Of a stretch of 64,000 bases of DNA, positions 56,584 to 64,000 are shown piece after piece. Under the pieces are notes generated by a model. That model was given only the letters and a program-made list of their open reading frames with translations. It was not told where the DNA came from and searched no databases. Position 1 is the stretch's first letter, and the number at the start of each line of letters is the position of its first letter. The translations under genes were made by a program, and so were the position numbers. The stretch is from an uncultured Candidatus Saccharibacteria bacterium (lineage in GTDB: Bacteria; Patescibacteriota; Minisyncoccia; UBA6257; GWB1-50-10): contig CAYISA010000003.1 of assembly GCA_964365955.1 (NCBI GenBank), forward strand, positions 677 through 64,676, given 5' to 3'.

Positions 56584-56901
56584 ATGAAAAAGATTTATGT
56601 AGGAGGACTTCCCTACTCTACGACCGATGCAGAAATGAAGGATCTGTTTGCAAAGTACGGTGCGGTATCTACGGCGAGCGTCCTTATGGACAAGTTCACC
56701 GGCCGCAGCCGCGGATTTGGTTTCGTGGAAATGGAGAACGATACGGAGGCACAAGCCGCCATCGATGCCTTGAACGGCACCGATTTCGGGGGACGCAAAA
56801 TCATTGTGAATGAAGCGCGCCCCTTGAGTGAGCGTCCGCCCCGCCGTGACTTCGGTGGTGGTCGTCGCGACTTTGGTGGTGGTGGTCGTCGCGAATACTA
56901 G
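56584..56901 (+). CDS. RNA-binding protein with an RRM domain and an RGG tail
   Basis: RNP-2 IYVGGL, RNP-1 RGFGFVEM, and an RRDFGGGRRDFGGGGRR tail. Confidence 0.9.
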   Translation: MKKIYVGGLPYSTTDAEMKDLFAKYGAVSTASVLMDKFTGRSRGFGFVEMENDTEAQAAIDALNGTDFGGRKIIVNEARPLSERPPRRDFGGGRRDFGGGGRREY

Positions 56902-56952: not shown

Positions 56953-57297
56953 CTATTTTTTATCGCGAACCCGTAATCGATCCCCGACAGCTCGTTCCTT
57001 AAAATCAAGAATCCTGCTCTTGAGGCTGTCTTTCAATAAATCGACAGCCGCGTGGAAATCTTCGTGGAATTCTTTCACAAATAGGGCCTTATGTGGAAAA
57101 GCAAGCGCTGCAGAAACGGAGAAACCATTCCCCTGCCGATGGTGTCTGCTCGGTTGCGTAACTTCTATCATCACCTGGGTTTCTCTTACCGTCTCGAAAC
57201 GTTTTATAAATCGCGCAAGCGTACCAATTTTCACCTCGATATACTCCCGCATCATGGGCGTGAGTTTGATCTCTGCTTTCCCAATCGTAATGTTCAT
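56953..57297 (-). CDS. hpf: Ribosome hibernation promoting factor (RaiA/YfiA family)
   Basis: S30AE-fold consensus (MNITI.G....L.R.I). Confidence 0.8.
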   Translation of the reverse strand: MNITIGKAEIKLTPMMREYIEVKIGTLARFIKRFETVRETQVMIEVTQPSRHHRQGNGFSVSAALAFPHKALFVKEFHEDFHAAVDLLKDSLKSRILDFKERAVGDRLRVRDKK

Positions 57298-57299
57298 CC

Positions 57300-59687
57300 T
57301 TATAGTTTAAGCTTTGCTTCCACGCGCTTCAATAAAACCGCATTGGTCGCGACAATAATTGAGGACGCAGACATTAAAAGCGCTGCGATTTCTGGCCGGA
57401 GCAAAAGACCGAATGACTTATAAAATACTCCCGCCGCGATGGGAATAGAAAGAACGTTATAGATTGCGGCCCAAAAAAGGTTCTGTTTCATCTTTCGCAC
57501 CGTTGCTTTACTTAACCGGATTGCCGCAACAATGTCATACGGATCGGATTTCATTAAAACGATGCTGCCTGTTTCGATCGCCACATCCGTACCGGCTCCA
57601 ATCGCGATGCCAATGTCGGCTTGCGCAAGCGCCGGCGCATCATTGATCCCGTCCCCCACCATAGCAACGAATTTTCCCTCGCTTTGAAGTTGCTTCACGT
57701 GCTTCGCTTTATCACCAGGAAGCACTTCCGCAAAAATCCGATCAATGCCGAGTTCTTTACCGATCGCTTCGGCAACTTTTTGGTGGTCACCTGTGATCAT
57801 GGCGACTTCAATGCCGAATTCTTTAAAACGTGCGACGGCATCTTTCGCATTCGGTTTTACGGTATCCGCAACCGCCACCACGCCCGCGAGTTTTCCGTCC
57901 ACCGAAAGTAGGCTTAATGTTTTTCCGCTCGCCGCAAGCTGACCAACCAAAACTTGTGACGTACCGAAAAGCACGCGGTTGTCTTTCATTAATTTTTCTG
58001 TTCCTGCGAGAATCGTTTTTCCGTTTACCACCGCCCGCAAGCCGTACCCGGCGAGGGATTCGAATTTTTCAACCATCTCAAATTTGGAAATATTTCTGTT
58101 CCTCGCTTCTTCCATGATCGCCTTCGCAATCGGGTGGTTTGACCCCGATTCGATACTAGCTTCATACTTCACGACATCGGCTTCACTAAACCCCTCGAAT
58201 GCCACCACATCCGTCACGCGCGGCTTGCCTTCGGTGAGCGTTCCGGTTTTATCAAGCACAATCGCATTGATTTTTGACGTATTTTCAAGCGTTGCGGCGT
58301 CTTTGATAAGAATGTTGTGTTTTGCACCGATCCCTGTGCCCACCGCAACCGCAGTGGGCGTTGCAAGCCCGAGCGCGTCGGGACAAGCGATCACAACCGT
58401 GGAAACAGCAAAAGTTAGCGCCACAATAAAGGTTGCCCCCGCGACAAAATACCACCCCAAAAATGCCGCGAGCCCGGAACCGATTGCAAGAACGACAAGA
58501 TACCCCGCCGCTTTGTCCGCAAGACGCTGGCCCGGCGCTTTGGAGTTTTGCGCAGTTTCAACCAGTTTGATGATCTGCGCAAGAACGGTTTCCGATCCAA
58601 CCTGTGTCGCCCTGAATTTAAGTGTTCCTGTTTGGTTGACCGACCCGCCCGTGACTTTGTCGCCCGGTTTTTTTAAAACTGGCAGCGATTCCCCCGTCAC
58701 CAATGATTCATCAATTGCACTTTCGCCTTCTATTACTTCGCCGTCCACCGGTACTTTGTCGCCCGGACGCAATACAACAATATCTCCATGAACGATTTCC
58801 GCGCTTGGAACTGCAACTTCTTTTCCATTACGGATCACATTCGCCTGCGGCGGCACAAGGTCAAATAACGCGCGGAGCGACTCCGAAGTTCCACGCCGCG
58901 ATTTCATCTCCATCCAATGGCCAAATAAAACGAACGTGACCAAAAGAGCCGCGGCTTCATAGAAGGTTTCGGACTCCGGATGAATGGCGGTAAGGAATAC
59001 GCTGAAAAGATATGCGGCCAGAACACCGGTAGCGACCAAAACCGCCATGTTGAGTTTTTTTGCCTTCAGGGAATAATAGGTCCCCGTAATAAAAATAGAG
59101 CCAGTCCAGAACACAATGGGCGTTGTGAGGATCAGAAGAAACCAATTAACTGGGATCGGTGCGGACAGATTTAATTTAAAAAAATTGATGCCGACCAGCG
59201 AATAGAGGAAAATCGGAATCGAGAGGAAAAGAGAGATCAGAAACCGGCGGCGCATATCCGCTTCCATCGCCTTTGCGATCTGCGGGTTGGTCATCGCCGC
59301 CTCGTGATCGGCATGACTCTTTTTTTGCATGTCGTGGCCCTTATAGTTATCCGTTCCTTCCCCAGGTTCGCCCGCTGAAATTTTTGCGGATGTGGGAATC
59401 AGCTCCATCCCACAGGCAGGACAGCGACCCGGCTCACTTTTCCGAACCTGCGGATGCATGGGGCAGGTGTAAATCATTTTCTCCCCTTCGATTACTTTTT
59501 CCGAAGAGGCTTTGGGGGCGTGCTCCGCGTGGCAACACATTTTTTCTATCGGGAACTCAAATTGCTTTGCCTCCATAGCACATCCACAGGTAATAGATAA
59601 TTTATCTGCGGAACAACTAAAGCACTCCTTACCGCATGCGCAGTTTTTTTGTCGAACAGGCGCGGGATTGTGATGATTGTGGTTCAT
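57300..59687 (-). CDS. copA: Copper-type P1B heavy-metal translocating ATPase
   Basis: N-terminal Cys/His-rich region and YTCPMHP...CPACGM metal-binding domain. DKTGTLT and GDGINDAPAL motifs. The TM6 motif reads CPD (VIACPDALGLATP) rather than CPC. Confidence 0.9.
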   Translation of the reverse strand: MNHNHHNPAPVRQKNCACGKECFSCSADKLSITCGCAMEAKQFEFPIEKMCCHAEHAPKASSEKVIEGEKMIYTCPMHPQVRKSEPGRCPACGMELIPTSAKISAGEPGEGTDNYKGHDMQKKSHADHEAAMTNPQIAKAMEADMRRRFLISLFLSIPIFLYSLVGINFFKLNLSAPIPVNWFLLILTTPIVFWTGSIFITGTYYSLKAKKLNMAVLVATGVLAAYLFSVFLTAIHPESETFYEAAALLVTFVLFGHWMEMKSRRGTSESLRALFDLVPPQANVIRNGKEVAVPSAEIVHGDIVVLRPGDKVPVDGEVIEGESAIDESLVTGESLPVLKKPGDKVTGGSVNQTGTLKFRATQVGSETVLAQIIKLVETAQNSKAPGQRLADKAAGYLVVLAIGSGLAAFLGWYFVAGATFIVALTFAVSTVVIACPDALGLATPTAVAVGTGIGAKHNILIKDAATLENTSKINAIVLDKTGTLTEGKPRVTDVVAFEGFSEADVVKYEASIESGSNHPIAKAIMEEARNRNISKFEMVEKFESLAGYGLRAVVNGKTILAGTEKLMKDNRVLFGTSQVLVGQLAASGKTLSLLSVDGKLAGVVAVADTVKPNAKDAVARFKEFGIEVAMITGDHQKVAEAIGKELGIDRIFAEVLPGDKAKHVKQLQSEGKFVAMVGDGINDAPALAQADIGIAIGAGTDVAIETGSIVLMKSDPYDIVAAIRLSKATVRKMKQNLFWAAIYNVLSIPIAAGVFYKSFGLLLRPEIAALLMSASSIIVATNAVLLKRVEAKLKL

Positions 59688-59766
59688 AATTATTTCTTAC
59701 AAAAAATTAAAGATTCGACCGTCGGATCAACAACGTACATGATGAGTATATACAATTCTATTTTTA

Positions 59767-60453
59767 TTATAACCGTTCGCGATGATCGTGGGAGGCAATG
59801 ATGCCCTGGTTTTTCTTAAGACGTGGAATACACATTGGAGTGCGCGCCTTATACATGTCCCATTGTGCCCCAAACGTCGCGCGTGATTCTTTCTCTTCGC
59901 GCCGCGCGAGACGCACATACATCCACACAAGCACCGGGAACATAAGAAGCGTGATAAGCGTAGGCCATTGGAACAAAAACCCGAACATGATAAGGATAAA
60001 CGCTACATACTGCGGATGACGGATTCGGGCATAGGGACCGGTTGTGGCAAGCGTGGAACCCCGTTGCGCTTTATAAAGCACCTTCCATGCGTTCGCGAGC
60101 AAAAGAAATCCATATCCGATAAGAATGTAACTTGCGATATGAAACGGCCCAAAATGCGGATCGCCGCCCCAACCAAATAGGTCTTCAAAAAGATGCCCGG
60201 AATTATGGATGAAGGGATCAATACCGGGGATCCATTTCACAAGCCAACCCAAAGCAAGATAGATTGTGAGCGGGAATCCGTACATCTCGAAAAACAGCGC
60301 AATGACGAATGCGGAAAATGCGCTGAACGACCTCCAATCGCGAGAAGTTTTCGGTTTTGTGAAGCTAAACGCAAACACAATAAAGACAGCGGAATTGATG
60401 ATGACAAGCGGCCAGAGACCATAGGCATTTTCCATAGCGATTAATGGCAACAC
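59767..60453 (-). CDS. Isoprenylcysteine carboxyl methyltransferase (ICMT/PEMT) family membrane methyltransferase
   Basis: TTGPYARIRHPQYVAFIL signature with multiple TM helices. Confidence 0.7.
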   Translation of the reverse strand: MLPLIAMENAYGLWPLVIINSAVFIVFAFSFTKPKTSRDWRSFSAFSAFVIALFFEMYGFPLTIYLALGWLVKWIPGIDPFIHNSGHLFEDLFGWGGDPHFGPFHIASYILIGYGFLLLANAWKVLYKAQRGSTLATTGPYARIRHPQYVAFILIMFGFLFQWPTLITLLMFPVLVWMYVRLARREEKESRATFGAQWDMYKARTPMCIPRLKKNQGIIASHDHRERL

Positions 60454-60722
60454 GAATGATCTCCCTTCTCATCTTTCACAGACTCGGTGACCGCAACAGA
60501 ATCCGCCTTCGGTTCGTGATCATCGGCATGATTTTTTTGAGATGAAGTATGCCCACGCCGCATCATCCAGAGATGTACCCCAACCATAGCGCCGATAAGG
60601 ATAAAGGAGGGCCACGATTGAAAAGCGCCACCTCCGGCAAACACGATAAAACCAAAGATAAGAAGACACGACACCATCATCCACATCATTGAGAATTTAT
60701 TTTTATTGTTGTGATTGTGCAT
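60441..60722 (-). CDS. Small His-rich membrane protein (DUF2933-like), C-terminal HSCCH
   Basis: MHNHNNKNKF..., two TM helices, His/Asp-rich tail ending in CCH. Internal ATG start chosen; the tabulated ORF extends to 60779. Confidence 0.4.
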   Translation of the reverse strand: MHNHNNKNKFSMMWMMVSCLLIFGFIVFAGGGAFQSWPSFILIGAMVGVHLWMMRRGHTSSQKNHADDHEPKADSVAVTESVKDEKGDHSCCH

Positions 60723-60723
60723 T

Positions 60724-60990
60724 TTACTCCTTGTCGCGCACCAAACTTGTGTTGTGCATCCAGACCATATACCACGCAAAAATCCACGCGAACGCGAACA
60801 TATAAACTACTCCAAGAAGAAAACTTCCAAACGTGAGCCATATAAATCCGGGTAATGTCTCAAACAGAGCGTGATGGATCTCGATGGCCCGGCCCGTACG
60901 CCACGGAAGAAGTTCGCCTAAAAGACACAGGAAGTAAAGGACCTCTGACCCCAGAACACACAACCATCCATACCGTTTTAATGAAAGCAT
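60724..60990 (-). CDS. Small two-TM membrane protein
   Basis: ORF in the same operon, between the repressor and the small His-rich protein. Confidence 0.35.
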   Translation of the reverse strand: MLSLKRYGWLCVLGSEVLYFLCLLGELLPWRTGRAIEIHHALFETLPGFIWLTFGSFLLGVVYMFAFAWIFAWYMVWMHNTSLVRDKE

Positions 60991-61046
60991 AATAACTATT
61001 TTTTAGTTGACTGTATTCATCTCTCGACCTTTCAAGACGTGTCCGA

Positions 61047-61319
61047 TTATTTTTGTTTAGACAATCGATACAACGATAGGATTTCCTCTACGGCTTTTTT
61101 CGATTGGCCCGACTTCATCTGCTGGACCACATGAGTTGATAAATGGTTTTTTAAAATGAAACCTTCGAAACTGGACAGGGCTTCTTTAATCGCGAGCGAT
61201 TGGTAGAGAATATCGATACAATATTTATCCTCTTCCACCATTTTTTCTAATCCTTTAATCTGACCCGCTACTATCCGCAAACGGCGGATTGCCCGTACTT
61301 TGTCAGTAATGTGTTTCAT
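61047..61319 (-). CDS. CsoR/RcnR/FrmR-family metal-sensing transcriptional repressor
   Basis: DKYCIDILYQSLAIKEAL helix, conserved Cys in the W-X-Y-Z fingerprint, and HLSTH. 90 aa. Confidence 0.75.
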   Translation of the reverse strand: MKHITDKVRAIRRLRIVAGQIKGLEKMVEEDKYCIDILYQSLAIKEALSSFEGFILKNHLSTHVVQQMKSGQSKKAVEEILSLYRLSKQK

Positions 61320-61323
61320 ACCA

Positions 61324-61347
61324 GGGTATGATACCCAGGGGGGGTAT
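61324..61347. promoter_or_regulatory. Candidate CsoR/RcnR-type operator: GGGTAT-g-ATACCC-aGGGG-GGGTAT (G-tract flanked by inverted repeats)
   Basis: Overlapping palindromes lie 5-28 nt upstream of the repressor start codon. This resembles the TACT-G6-N-AGTA / TACCC-N-GGGTA type sites of this family. Confidence 0.45.
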
Positions 61348-61353
61348 CATATG

Positions 61354-61806
61354 TCAAGAACGAATTATCCACAGAAATGTTCGTCCTTCTACGCCTCCTA
61401 CTTTGCCCACAACCAACTGGAGTGTTTTGGGTAGCGGAGCAATAGAGCCGAACATCAGTAGCCCGTTGCGATGGTGACCTCCCGGGGGATCACCCTCCCA
61501 GCGCACGGGCTTATATTCTTTACCATTTTCGTCCTTGAGCATAACCGTCTGGGTTAGATCGGCACTCAAATCTTCGGAATGTGTATCAAGCGCCACCTCA
61601 AAAGCAACTTCAGAAGAAAGGTTCGGGGTTATTTTTACGGTAACCGATCCTTCGCTATTCGTTTGCATTTCAAGCGCCGGAAGCAATTCGGTAGAAAGTT
61701 GGGACCCCGGCACTTGCTGTTTAGTAGACTGCTTTCCTCTGCTACCAAAAATCAAAAGTGTGGCGACCGTTAAAACAATCGTACCGACGATATATATTCT
61801 TTTCAT
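61354..61806 (-). CDS. Secreted hypothetical protein
   Basis: Signal/TM (IYIVGTIVLTVATLLIFG). 150 aa. Confidence 0.4.
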   Translation of the reverse strand: MKRIYIVGTIVLTVATLLIFGSRGKQSTKQQVPGSQLSTELLPALEMQTNSEGSVTVKITPNLSSEVAFEVALDTHSEDLSADLTQTVMLKDENGKEYKPVRWEGDPPGGHHRNGLLMFGSIAPLPKTLQLVVGKVGGVEGRTFLWIIRS

Positions 61807-62240
61807 GATATTTTTAGTTTAATGATACGGCGAGTGATCAATCCGATCCCCAGAATATTGAACGCGATGCCGACCCAGAACAGCTTCACTTGATACTGTG
61901 CGGCAAACGTCACGATTCCAGTAGCTCCTAAGACCGGGAGAATGTTCACAAGATAGTGAGCGCAACAGGAGACCATCGCGGCGGTGGAGGTCGTTCCCGT
62001 CGCCGCTACTACCTTCCCTGACATACTACCCTGGTGCACAACACTCTTCAGATAAGCATAGAGCCCAACCTGAATCCCAAATCCTAAGGCGAGTGCCACC
62101 ACAAAATACCAGAACTGCACGAACTGATTTGCCGTGAAATTCCATCCCGACACAAGAGACAGCGCCGCAAAATAGGCGCCGAGAAGCGTAAACGTAGCCG
62201 CAGATCCCTTCATAATGGACGTGATGATAGATCGTGACAT
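61803..62240 (-). CDS. Polytopic membrane protein (unknown function)
   Basis: Four predicted TM helices and a CC pair (MVSCCAHYL). Confidence 0.4.
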   Translation of the reverse strand: MSRSIITSIMKGSAATFTLLGAYFAALSLVSGWNFTANQFVQFWYFVVALALGFGIQVGLYAYLKSVVHQGSMSGKVVAATGTTSTAAMVSCCAHYLVNILPVLGATGIVTFAAQYQVKLFWVGIAFNILGIGLITRRIIKLKIS

Positions 62241-62241
62241 A

Positions 62242-62862
62242 CTAATTTAATTTTTCGAGTTCCGCGAAAACACGATCGTTGTCAATCCCCATAGTTGGGT
62301 CATCGAACGCGTCGCGAACAATTCCCTGTTTATCAATTAAGATAAAACTATGTCCGGGGAATGCGCCATAATGCATTGAGGAGGGCAGGGTGAGCATGCC
62401 GAGCGCCTGTGAAACTGATTTATCGCTGTCGAAAAGTACTGTCGCCTTTCCAAGCTCCGGCATTTTCTGAATTGCGCTCTGCCAATCGGAAGGAGGATCA
62501 ATCACCACGGAGAGCACAGCCGTATCCGCGTTATTGAATCGCGGGTCGGTCGCAAGCGCGACCATCTGATTCCAGCAAGCGGGATAGCACATAATGCCTT
62601 CGCTGAAAAAGAGCGCGATTTTTTTCCCTTTGAGACCAATCGCAGAATATTCGGTGCCGTTCCGATCGCGGAGCGAAAAATCCAGCATCGGTTTTCCGAT
62701 TAAATTATTGAGCGACCCCGGATCCCCTGCAACCGGCGTATGCATGGGGTCAGAACCACTTAGTTGCGACCCTTTACCATTGCGGCCCAGAAAAAAGAGC
62801 CCGCCGAGAACAAAAATAATTATAACAATTAGTGCGATCGTAGTGAATTTATTTTTTTTCAT
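62242..62862 (-). CDS. Thioredoxin-fold protein, SCO1/SenC- or redoxin-like (CxxxC)
   Basis: N-terminal TM. GKKIALFFSEGIMCYPAC motif with a downstream HS, reminiscent of the SCO family. Confidence 0.5.
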   Translation of the reverse strand: MKKNKFTTIALIVIIIFVLGGLFFLGRNGKGSQLSGSDPMHTPVAGDPGSLNNLIGKPMLDFSLRDRNGTEYSAIGLKGKKIALFFSEGIMCYPACWNQMVALATDPRFNNADTAVLSVVIDPPSDWQSAIQKMPELGKATVLFDSDKSVSQALGMLTLPSSMHYGAFPGHSFILIDKQGIVRDAFDDPTMGIDNDRVFAELEKLN

Positions 62863-63734
62863 GATGTTATTGTTGATTTTTTAGACTGTCGTATGGCAAT
62901 CGTGATAAGCCAAGTAAAGATTCCTATGAATAGAATTGCCCAGACGTATTGCGGGATGCCGCCGATAAATTGATCCAGCCATTGCTGAAACTTTGTGAGG
63001 TAGATGTTTACGTTAATTTGCAACTCGGAATGCATGGCGAGATTCCCGGTAAAGGCCCAGATAAACGTAAGAATGCCCATCACGGTGAATGTTACCCCCG
63101 CAAGAAGATCCGAGATTCGCACCGCCATTTCCTTCCCGAAGAGGCGCAGTCTAAATGGTTCCCGGGCAATAAACAGCCGTTCCGTAAGACGGGAGCGATC
63201 GAGAATGAAGGACAATACAAAGAGCGGAGTCACCATACCGAGTACATATGCGAGAGTATAGACGATCCCCCAAAGGAAAGACCCCGGGAGAATCGAGAGC
63301 GCAAGCGCCCCTGCAAGCACCGGCGCACAACATGTGGTTGCAGTTCCAGAAAAAATTCCAAGCACGAATATGGCTACCGCGCTTTCCTTTCCGGTGTATT
63401 CCCGCTTAGAGCGAAGGCTTTTAGGCAATGCGAACCGTTTCCCCAGAAGTAGCGAGACGCCCAACCCAAACAGCAGTAGTCCGACCGCTATGAAGATTTC
63501 GCGATGGTAACGGCTGAAGATTTGGCCCAATACCGATATCCCGAGCCCGAGTGGAAGAAAAACTGTCAGGATTCCCAGAAAGAAAATAAAAGTCATTAGA
63601 AATACTTTCCTTCTTGTTCGGAAGATCGAGCCAAAATAAGAGGGCAGAAGAACGGTCACGCAACAAGGCGCGAAGAGTGCGGCAATTCCTGCAATGAATG
63701 CGGCAAGAAGCGATGTGCTAATAAGTATTTCCAT
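62859..63734 (-). CDS. ccdA: Cytochrome c biogenesis / thiol-disulfide transporter CcdA (DsbD-like TM domain)
   Basis: LFAPCCVTVLLP and a second TTCCAP cysteine pair. About 8 TM helices. Probable start MEILISTS. Confidence 0.65.
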   Translation of the reverse strand: MEILISTSLLAAFIAGIAALFAPCCVTVLLPSYFGSIFRTRRKVFLMTFIFFLGILTVFLPLGLGISVLGQIFSRYHREIFIAVGLLLFGLGVSLLLGKRFALPKSLRSKREYTGKESAVAIFVLGIFSGTATTCCAPVLAGALALSILPGSFLWGIVYTLAYVLGMVTPLFVLSFILDRSRLTERLFIAREPFRLRLFGKEMAVRISDLLAGVTFTVMGILTFIWAFTGNLAMHSELQINVNIYLTKFQQWLDQFIGGIPQYVWAILFIGIFTWLITIAIRQSKKSTITS

Positions 63735-64000
63735 AAAATTAGATGCCGCAACCGCCCTGTGGGGCGTAAGGTGTCTGTTCGTTTTGTTGCGGGATTTTAA
63801 TTGCCCCCGCATTCCTATCAGCTTTTAGGCCCGCGATATAAATCCACGTGATTGAAATAACGAATGCGGAGATAAGAATGCTCACCGAAATAGAATGATC
63901 TTTATTTTGTTTTTTTCTGTATTTTCCATGTTGGTGTTTCCCCCGTTTGAAACTAAAAAACCGCGAACGATGCGGCGGGAGCTACAAGCAGAAAAGTACG

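Follow-up and report, generated by a model that had tools for sequence, protein, structure and literature searches.

A P1B-type ATPase with a CPD motif, assigned to the CopB lineage, in a predicted copper-efflux operon of a Candidatus Saccharibacteria bacterium

The DNA analysed here, which we call the window, is a stretch of 64,000 nucleotides (nt) from an uncultured Candidatus Saccharibacteria bacterium (assembly GCA_964365955.1, contig CAYISA010000003.1), and our subject is a minus-strand metal-resistance operon encoding a P1B-type ATPase whose metal-binding helix carries the residues CPD. This motif is fixed across a clade of pumps spanning at least four phyla and is no one-off oddity, and we assign the pump to the CopB lineage (CPH pumps, formerly P1B-3), with Asp replacing His. 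Our favoured explanation, to which we give a probability of about 0.68, is a copper-responsive efflux operon in which CsoR-type repression is lifted by Cu(I) and Cu(I) is exported by the CopB-lineage pump. This reading starts from what was observed directly, namely which genes and motifs are present, how promoter and operator are arranged, what is conserved, where the pump falls in the tree and which genes occur together.

An earlier note on this DNA had described the operon as an operator followed by a repressor, two small membrane proteins, an ICMT-family methyltransferase and the ATPase. Family scans and the list of open reading frames of the window, on which our gene assignments are based, recovered every one of these parts in that order, together with a promoter and a palindromic operator. 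The observation in the note is correct and its interpretation right in part: the locus is a Patescibacterial example of groups that are known but uncharacterised, and an ordinary member of them.

The CPD pump and its lineage

The ATPase contains VIACPDALGLATP, and its CPD motif occupies amino acids (aa) 435-437 (codons TGT CCC GAC, DNA positions 58377-58385). The catalytic motifs are intact, with TGES at aa 331, DKTGT at aa 479-483, SNHP at aa 516 and GDGIND at aa 678. All core motifs of a P1B-type ATPase are present, the protein scores 605 bits against a cut-off of 346 with TIGR01525, and the NCBIfam model of copper-translocating ATPases, TIGR01511, gives 583 bits. Its last two helices are of the copper type, carrying YNVLSIP (aa 743-749; YN(x)4P) and MSASS (aa 772-776; M(x)2SS), and GHWMEM stands in the second transmembrane helix (TM2; aa 256-261). 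The N-terminus opens with a short MNHNHHN stretch and places only nine His ahead of the membrane domain, and this start is followed by a Cys-rich module (aa 16-42), a CCH triplet (aa 51-53) and the YTCPMHP...CPACGM metal-binding domain, which had been reported before and proves to be an HMBD (PF19335, aa 73-94, E 4.7e-13). His-rich N-termini, with 12-25 His, are found in the CPD pumps of Deinococcus, Thermus and Rhodococcus. Homologues back the 795-aa reading of the gene, from the ATG at 59687, and define a consensus for the Cys-rich module after the His-rich start, NCxCGKECxxCxAEKLxVxCGCxMEAKQ[YF]E[YF]; the public 758-aa gene call drops this module. The module (DNA 59562-59642) stands ahead of the HMBD in many of the Patescibacterial CPD pumps listed and corresponds to no Pfam family. 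The CCH triplet (59529-59537), found in 21 of 120 homologues, echoes the tail of a small membrane protein of the operon that is described below.

The conservation of CPD was read from two sets of relatives: the 120 closest proteins in a collection of 5.8 billion sequences, which have at least 70% identity and come from many independent samples, and 82 loci, made up of 80 GTDB species representatives (58-76% identity) and two loci of the window's own organism. CPD is present in all 120 proteins and at all 82 loci, and CPC in none of these pumps, so that the earlier description of the motif as atypical beside CPC is borne out and extended to its close relatives. The 82 loci span Parcubacteria-type groups, Microgenomates, WWE3 and Berkelbacteria, and the CPD pump appears to be a common pump type in Patescibacteria. 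At the DNA level, Asp lies two base changes from Cys, whereas a single base separates Asp (GAC) from His (CAC). Because CPD is fixed in about 200 independent relatives and two changes from Cys would have been needed, a sequencing error, which had been named as the finding that would overturn the observation, is excluded. A broader artefact, in which CPD reflects an assembly error or a decaying gene, or the methyltransferase is an accidental neighbour, has a negligible probability. We found no point in its support other than that the window is a metagenome assembly. Apart from the conservation of CPD, all catalytic motifs are intact, the methyltransferase has the same DUF2933 partner in other phyla, and its gene lies near the CPD pump in 16 of the 80 species loci as against 0 of 80 for the ribosome hibernation factor gene HPF, a rough control for accidental neighbours. 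In these and all later counts a neighbour is a gene no more than 7 kb away from the CPD pump, in nearly all cases on the strand of the pump.

To place the pump we built a neighbour-joining tree of 59 pumps from 669 well-occupied columns, with 100 bootstraps and E. coli ZntA as root. Besides E. coli CopA and ZntA, the set combined CPD pumps of Patescibacterial and cultured origin, CPH and CPC representatives, HMBD-bearing CPC pumps, and the second, canonical CopA of some Patescibacterial loci. A single clade with 93% bootstrap support unites the CPD and CPH pumps, and within it the CPH pumps are monophyletic (100%) and the Patescibacterial CPD pumps form a clade of their own (100%), while the canonical CPC CopAs from the same Patescibacterial loci fall in another clade than the CPD pumps. 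Furthermore, there are 12 columns at which 90% or more of the CPD pumps agree on a residue seldom found in CPC pumps, and besides the motif position the CPH majority has the same residue at 11 of 11. Lineage residues common to CPD and CPH pumps are GHWMEM in TM2, L397, A401 and G405 in TM3, P716 and A747. The joint clade and these common residues are the grounds for assigning the pump to the CopB lineage, with Asp in the third position of a motif (TM4/TM6) that reads CPH in CopB itself. The CopA-type (P1B-1) label given earlier is therefore not retained, CPC being absent and the pump grouping with CPH, even though YN(x)4P and M(x)2SS are nonetheless present. In agreement with this assignment, a 2017 paper placed three rhizobial CPD pumps beside CPH pumps and termed CPD a novel motif (PMC5552934). 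Bradyrhizobium liaoningense CueA was considered as a possible characterised CPD pump and ruled out, as its motif is CPC. A review (PMC7558416, citing Purohit et al. 2018) has CopB pumps assigned first to Cu(II) and later to Cu(I). A search of the PDB returned CopB entries for cytoplasmic domains only and no CopB-named chain with a membrane domain.

Beyond about 50% identity, neighbours are mostly CPC pumps, and the best 150 representatives from a wider search of 1.84 billion cluster representatives include about six with CPD and four with CPH. CPD pumps also occur in cultured bacteria, where a tblastn search against plasmids found them at 45-52% identity in Deinococcus, Thermus, Meiothermus, Rhodococcus, Mycolicibacterium, Bradyrhizobium and Acidovorax. 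Of these seven settings, four are plainly copper-resistance islands. The Thermus brockianus pump adjoins a multicopper oxidase; that of Meiothermus taiwanensis lies in a copper island with a multicopper oxidase, a four-helix-bundle copper-binding protein, DUF302, DUF305, an HMA chaperone and a CsoR-type regulator; the Rhodococcus order is multicopper oxidase, HMA chaperone, CPC CopA, CPD pump, DUF305; and the Mycolicibacterium poriferae pump has DUF302, DUF305 and a multicopper oxidase as neighbours. No copper-specific neighbour was seen in the stretches inspected in Deinococcus geothermalis, Bradyrhizobium sp. BTAi1 and Acidovorax. Two proteobacterial plasmids carry a polyphosphate kinase 2 gene in the vicinity of the CPD pump, that of Acidovorax sp. 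T1 directly upstream of the pump and that of Bradyrhizobium sp. BTAi1 about 3.6 kb upstream.

Some Patescibacterial genomes carry two types of pump. A canonical CopA with CPC and MAxSS is encoded within 7 kb of the CPD pump, on the same strand, at nine of the 80 loci (L016, L023, L033, L051, L053, L054, L055, L066 and L080), and most of those inspected among these nine CopAs have an HMA domain. CPC CopA and the CPD pump coexist rather than replace one another.

Promoter, operator and repressor

The top promoter match between positions 56800 and 64000 is TTGACA-18-TATCAT, which agrees with the consensus at 11 of 12 positions and sits at the 35-bp gap between csoR, the repressor gene, and the upstream gene of a protein that we call p150. 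Only about 8 nt separate the end of the -10 hexamer from the csoR ATG, and the csoR transcript would consequently be nearly leaderless. Inside the promoter spacer lies the operator, TATGATACCC-N5-GGGTATCATA, a perfect 10-nt inverted repeat; its core, GATACCC-N5-GGGTATC, is present just once in the 64 kb window, and 0.12 copies would be expected. The operator core GATACCCCCCCTGGGTATC (61330-61348) presents TAC-N9-GTA around C/G tracts. Because TAC-X9-GTA with G-tracts is reported to be conserved among CsoR operators and needed for binding of Streptomyces lividans CsoR (PMC3902906), we assign the element to the CsoR-type operators.

A groundwater metagenome contig with an identical ATPase (Hainich H43, ENA ERZ1292626; here L001) runs past the end of the window and carries, in L001 2837-3563 just outside it, a second csoR paralogue. 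This gene encodes 89 aa, also with Cys-His-His (C-H-H) at the ligand positions, and has its own box, TATACCCTACGGGGGTATA (L001 2837-2855), similar to the operator in the window; a 142-aa membrane protein is encoded next.

The repressor of the window has the PF02583 fold (80.5 bits), and its top PDB matches are Cu-sensing CsoRs. Its ligand positions, Cys34, His59 and His63, read C-H-H rather than the x-C-H-C fingerprint of Cu(I)-sensing CsoR, and in an alignment His63 falls at the position of the second Cys of S. lividans CsoR, where Thermus thermophilus CsoR (PDB 3AAI) likewise has a His. C-H-H is kept in close homologues and His3 of the window repressor is not conserved, with a His near the N-terminus in only three of nine C-H-H homologues among the 11 inspected. 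The unconserved His3, the conserved C-H-H and the type of the operator together favour a sensor of the CsoR type, presumably for copper. An RcnR-like Ni/Co sensor was weighed as a candidate and downgraded on account of the lack of conservation of His3 and of an operator that fits the CsoR pattern (PMC3902906).

Sensor and pump together bear on the main rival to a copper-efflux operon, according to which Asp437 and the C-H-H sensor retune the system to Cu(II), Zn(II), Co(II), Ni(II) or Cd(II), so that it confers resistance to a divalent metal. Asp is a typical ligand in divalent-metal P1B pumps, as in ZntA-type sites; His3 with Cys34, His59 and His63 gives the H-C-H-H pattern of RcnR, whose NCBIfam model matches the repressor at E 3e-10; and the presence of a CPD pump alongside a canonical CPC CopA at nine of the 80 loci and in Rhodococcus suggests a separate job for the former. 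However, CopA and CopB side by side are normal in organisms with CPH pumps, and His3, on which the RcnR pattern depends, is unconserved. Since YN(x)4P and MxxSS (TM5/TM6) are copper-type rather than Zn- or Co-type motifs, the lineage markers are all those of CopB, the operator is CsoR-type, and in cultured bacteria CPD pumps have copper genes around them, among these multicopper oxidases and HMA chaperones, we regard a change to a divalent metal as unlikely.

The small membrane proteins and the methyltransferase

Between the repressor and the methyltransferase, the operon encodes two small proteins with two transmembrane helices (2TM) each. Homologues back MHNHNN as the true start of the one that precedes the methyltransferase, which has HLWMMRRGH after TM2 and an acidic tail ending in HSCCH. 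A Pfam scan of this protein gave no match even at E 10, so that the DUF2933 (PF11666) cut-off was not reached. Proteins encoded at the same position nonetheless form a graded series, from canonical DUF2933 with ACPLMHLFMHGGHGGH (72.8 bits), through CCH-tailed proteins, of which those at loci L033 and L040 exceed the DUF2933 cut-off, to proteins with HLWMMRRGH...HSCCH, and an hhalign comparison of the CCH group with canonical DUF2933 gives a probability of 92% (E 5e-7). On the strength of this match and the intermediate sequences, the HSCCH protein can be classed as a divergent DUF2933 protein. At some loci (L003, 5017-5193, and L118) the place of the 2TM DUF2933 protein ahead of ICMT is taken by a soluble protein resembling a zinc ribbon (CxxC...C...H), likewise with a CCH or SCH end, and the element that is conserved seems to be the C-terminal CCH tail. 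The second small protein, of 88 aa, has conserved Cys and His residues and PF18926 as its top match, at 21 bits and thus below the cut-off of 27.6 bits. Same-position proteins at L003 and L067 match DUF5676 at 53-59 bits, and by this comparison it is probably a divergent DUF5676-like member. A tblastn search with this protein against plasmids gave no match.

The methyltransferase belongs to the ICMT family, exceeding the PF04140 cut-off of 24 bits and possessing the RHPQY...EE cofactor region. It aligns with the C-terminal, cofactor-binding half of the Methanosarcina enzyme Ma-ICMT (4A2N), including RHPQY and REEKE, and the RHPxY...EE residues are invariant in a conservation map of its subfamily. 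The window protein scored far below the cut-offs of the NCBIfam equivalog models for isoprenylcysteine methyltransferase, LmtA and MddA. A His-rich loop, HxxGH...(D/N)PHFGxxH (aa 76-99), is invariant from Patescibacteria to Proteobacteria and Cyanobacteria and absent from CzcN, an ICMT-family protein of another metal-resistance operon; this loop may be a metal site.

The earlier note had considered a methyltransferase in a metal operon unusual and had suggested its co-occurrence with the pump as a check. The same subfamily turns out to be a common partner of copper ATPases. Plasmid genes of Proteobacteria and Cyanobacteria are 63-68% identical to the window gene, a notable likeness between phyla so far apart, and of the 272 plasmid records that matched it 193 have 60-80% identity. 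In each of the four plasmid regions inspected (Acinetobacter, Phaeobacter, Nostoc and Xanthobacter) a small gene directly precedes ICMT; it is annotated as DUF2933 in three and as "conserved hypothetical", with the same sequence signature, in Xanthobacter. A P1B ATPase lies next to ICMT in three of the four, with CPC and HMBD in Acinetobacter and Phaeobacter and with CPC and no HMBD in Nostoc. Among 47 ICMT-centred metagenome loci, most of those for which upstream sequence is available have a DUF2933-type gene directly upstream, and on ICMT-centred contigs of at least 7 kb a P1B ATPase is found within 6 kb in 11 of 16 cases. The pumps across the 47 loci are of the CPD type in five, CPC in seven and CPH in one, and because all three occur, the DUF2933-ICMT module goes with copper pumps generally and not with CPD specifically. 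We take DUF2933 and ICMT to be a tightly coupled module associated with copper ATPases of all three motif types across phyla. A 2021 study had already tabulated merR-copA-cupredoxin-DUF2933-ICMT clusters in Alteromonas and many other marine gammaproteobacteria, assigning no function (PMC8478169), and CzcN, an ICMT-family membrane protein at the head of a metal-resistance operon (PMC7563307), is a more distant precedent.

A working model, the wider locus and known counterparts

For the copper-efflux operon that we favour, we infer the inducing metal, the transported metal and the roles of Asp437 and of the DUF2933-like, ICMT-family and DUF5676-like proteins as follows. In the absence of Cu(I), a tetramer of the CsoR-family protein would occupy the TAC-N9-GTA palindrome in the promoter spacer and block transcription of csoR, the DUF5676-like and DUF2933-like genes, icmt and the ATPase gene, and Cu(I) bound by Cys34, His59 and His63 would free the repressor from the operator. 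The pump would export cytoplasmic Cu(I), and probably also Ag(I), for which its N-terminal His/Cys-rich and HMBD modules may gather the metal. Its membrane metal site would be formed by Cys435 and Asp437 of CPD, Tyr and Asn of YN(x)4P, and Met and Ser of MSASS; standing where CopB has His, Asp437 could act as a non-thiol (N/O) ligand or as a proton-handling residue. Because no CopZ-type chaperone is encoded nearby, our working guess is that the two-helix DUF2933 protein binds Cu(I) as a partner tethered to the membrane. Its His-rich N-terminus and its Cys/His-rich C-terminus are both predicted to be cytoplasmic, as the RR/K after TM2 fits the positive-inside rule. The methyltransferase, again as a working guess, would modify a membrane lipid or a small molecule under copper stress.

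Several points weigh against this model. Asp offers a carboxylate, which is a hard ligand and unusual as a partner of Cu(I). The sensor has no second Cys, C-H-H sites can bind several metals in vitro, and with His3 the RcnR pattern is complete in the window repressor. The canonical CPC CopAs near the CPD pump at nine of 80 loci suggest that the two pumps are non-redundant. DUF2933 is twice as frequent near the pump as ICMT (32 and 16 of 80 loci, respectively), so that the pair is not obligatory, and the functions given to the DUF2933, ICMT and DUF5676 proteins are guesses. The tree is a neighbour-joining tree of 59 sequences that leaves the branching order of the CPD groups relative to CPH without resolution. 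Finally, we found no biochemically characterised CPD pump in the literature, in which the sole paper found on the motif was PMC5552934 (Smith 2014 and Purohit 2018 were not covered).

The cluster is larger than the stretch from 57300 to 61347 described in the earlier note; the genes named there are in place, and the cluster continues upstream with p150, p145, a redoxin and DsbD_TM (Table 1). Within the operon, the two small genes are 1 nt apart, the HSCCH gene ends 5 nt short of icmt, and 79 nt lie between icmt and the ATPase gene. The HPF/YfiA gene is probably co-transcribed with the ATPase gene, an adjacency seen in this organism alone (0 of 80 related loci). The redoxin and the DsbD/CcdA-type transporter probably form an envelope thiol-redox pair. 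Further upstream, L001 encodes a DUF1573 protein, a second DsbD-like/SfLAP membrane protein and a 304-aa protein with the motif CCGNSTYFPDCNHG, and in view of these genes beyond the window end the copper/redox island is larger than the window. No gene for an HMA/CopZ-type chaperone is encoded in the 64 kb window.

Table 1. Features of the operon and its surroundings, with the number of the 80 Patescibacterial species loci at which each gene neighbours the CPD pump (DUF5676-like and DUF2933-like genes were counted with profiles of each group)
Feature	Position	Strand	Basis	Loci (of 80)
HPF/YfiA, ribosome hibernation factor gene	56953-57297	-	starts 2 nt past the ATPase stop	0
P1B-type ATPase, assigned to the CopB lineage, 795 aa	57300-59687	-	PF00122 E 1e-56, PF00702, HMBD PF19335 E 4.7e-13
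ICMT/PEMT-family membrane methyltransferase, 222 aa	59767-60435	-	PF04140 32.7 bits (cut-off 24), PF04191 32.3 bits	16
His-rich 2TM protein with tail HSCCH, 93 aa, divergent DUF2933-like	60441-60722	-	profile-profile comparison and positional series	32
Small 2TM protein, 88 aa, divergent DUF5676-like	60724-60990	-	PF18926 top match, below cut-off	34
CsoR/RcnR-family repressor, 90 aa	61047-61319	-	PF02583 E 1.2e-22, 80.5 bits	30
Operator, perfect inverted repeat	61327-61351	strand-neutral	repeat search, 100% complementary
Sigma-70-type promoter, TTGACA-18-TATCAT	61357-61328	-	11/12 consensus positions
p150, membrane-anchored extracytoplasmic beta-sandwich	61354-61806	-	AlphaFold2 (AF2) model, conserved motifs	19
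p145, membrane protein	61803-62240	-	hydrophobic helices, no family match	22
AhpC/redoxin-fold (thioredoxin-fold) protein	62242-62862	-	PF00578/PF08534	17
DsbD/CcdA-type membrane electron transporter (DsbD_TM)	62859-63812	-	PF02683	23

Two of the recurrent neighbours stand out by their conserved motifs. In the AF2 model of p150, pLDDT exceeds 90 over residues 50-140 (10-residue block means), and the protein has invariant DTH and WxGDPPGGHHRxGxLxF and recurs beside both the CPD pump and the ICMT gene. For p145, three or more hydrophobic helices are predicted, the conserved motif MVSCCAHY falls in a stretch predicted to be helical and embedded in the membrane, and homologues at the related loci are 53-63% identical. 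Library scans gave no family match for p145 and tblastn found no homologue on plasmids; its AF2 model, computed from a single sequence, was too poor for a fold search (pLDDT 62, pTM 0.34). In the window the p150/p145 pair immediately precedes csoR, and on many related contigs it immediately follows the ICMT gene.

These neighbours raise the alternative that the pump is a low-turnover Cu(I) pump of the CopA2/CcoI kind, supplying extracytoplasmic copper proteins or p150 and p145 themselves rather than serving detoxification. The frequency of p150 and p145, with their His/Cys motifs, and of the DsbD/thioredoxin pair would suit such a role, as would the canonical CopA that coexists in some genomes. 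On the other hand, a CsoR-type repressor follows the logic of detoxification, with induction by excess metal, and in our tree the pump clusters apart from the CPC pumps sampled. To our knowledge, Patescibacteria generally lack the respiratory oxidases that CopA2/CcoI-type pumps serve. We judge this supply role to be improbable, and much more so than a change of metal.

For this window the result is mostly clarifying, as both the CPD motif (2017, PMC5552934) and the DUF2933-ICMT gene order (2021, PMC8478169) were already known, and the questions that remain, the role of Asp and that of DUF2933-ICMT, concern the whole class rather than this locus. They matter because the three residues of the motif in the metal-binding helix define the P1B subclasses and are routinely used to predict selectivity. 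As we found no biochemical or structural representative of the CPD clade, annotation pipelines label its pumps "copper-translocating" by similarity alone; if Asp does change selectivity or mechanism, predictions for many genomes, including most Patescibacteria, will need revisiting. Likewise, the DUF2933-ICMT pair tracks copper pumps and keeps about 65% identity from candidate-phyla-radiation bacteria to Proteobacteria, which makes it a testable lead to a missing component of copper homeostasis. It is conceivable, if doubtful, that CPD pumps make up a functionally distinct, phylum-spanning sister class of CopB and, separately, that DUF2933-ICMT is a general and unrecognised accessory system of copper P-type ATPases. 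In the former case the carboxylate may alter the cargo or its release, for example by admitting Cu(II) or another harder ion or by building in a proton or counter-ion step. In the latter, a membrane-tethered Cu-binding protein may act with a metal-responsive methyltransferase whose substrate is a lipid, a small thiol or the pump itself.

Several parts of the operon have known counterparts from which they differ in some respects. The repressor has the same Cys-His-His in place of Cys-His-Cys as T. thermophilus CsoR (3AAI), although overall identity is low. The marine and plasmid DUF2933-ICMT clusters encode the same ICMT subfamily (63-68% identity), directly downstream of DUF2933 and beside a P1B copper ATPase. 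Alteromonas-type and plasmid clusters combine a CPC pump with a MerR/CueR-type regulator and a cupredoxin, whereas the window has CPD, CsoR and no cupredoxin gene, and their DUF2933 proteins lack the C-terminal CCH tail. CzcN and NccN of Cupriavidus metallidurans (czc, ncc) are likewise ICMT-family proteins encoded in metal-resistance operons, yet they are tied to an RND/CDF Co/Zn/Cd system rather than a P-type ATPase and have no DUF2933 partner. We rejected an identification of the ICMT gene as CzcN, because the similarity, 29% identity over the C-terminal 109 aa, is confined to the catalytic part, and CzcN lacks the conserved N-terminal half with the His loop.

The pump itself has its nearest described counterparts in two groups. 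The Rhizobiales CPD ATPases of cluster VIc (Xanthobacter, Nitrobacter and Bradyrhizobium; PMC5552934) similarly have CPD, YN(x)4P and MSxSS and stand next to CPH pumps. They belong to another phylum and are less than 50% identical to the window pump, the plasmid pump of Bradyrhizobium sp. BTAi1 reaching 48%. Unlike the window pump, rhizobial and actinobacterial CPD pumps are without HMBD and Cys-rich module and, at the loci inspected, do not adjoin DUF2933-ICMT. CopB, as represented by the pumps of Enterococcus hirae, Archaeoglobus fulgidus and Sphaerobacter thermophilus, falls in the same clade as the window pump and has YN(x)4P, a last-helix MSxS[ST] and a His-rich N-terminal start. The third residue of its TM4 motif is His where the window pump has Asp, and its N-terminus is a long poly-His region in contrast to the Cys-rich module and zinc-ribbon-like HMBD (PF19335) found here. 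In the last helix the window pump has MSASS, whereas CopB is usually quoted with MSxST, and both forms are found in CPD and in CPH pumps.

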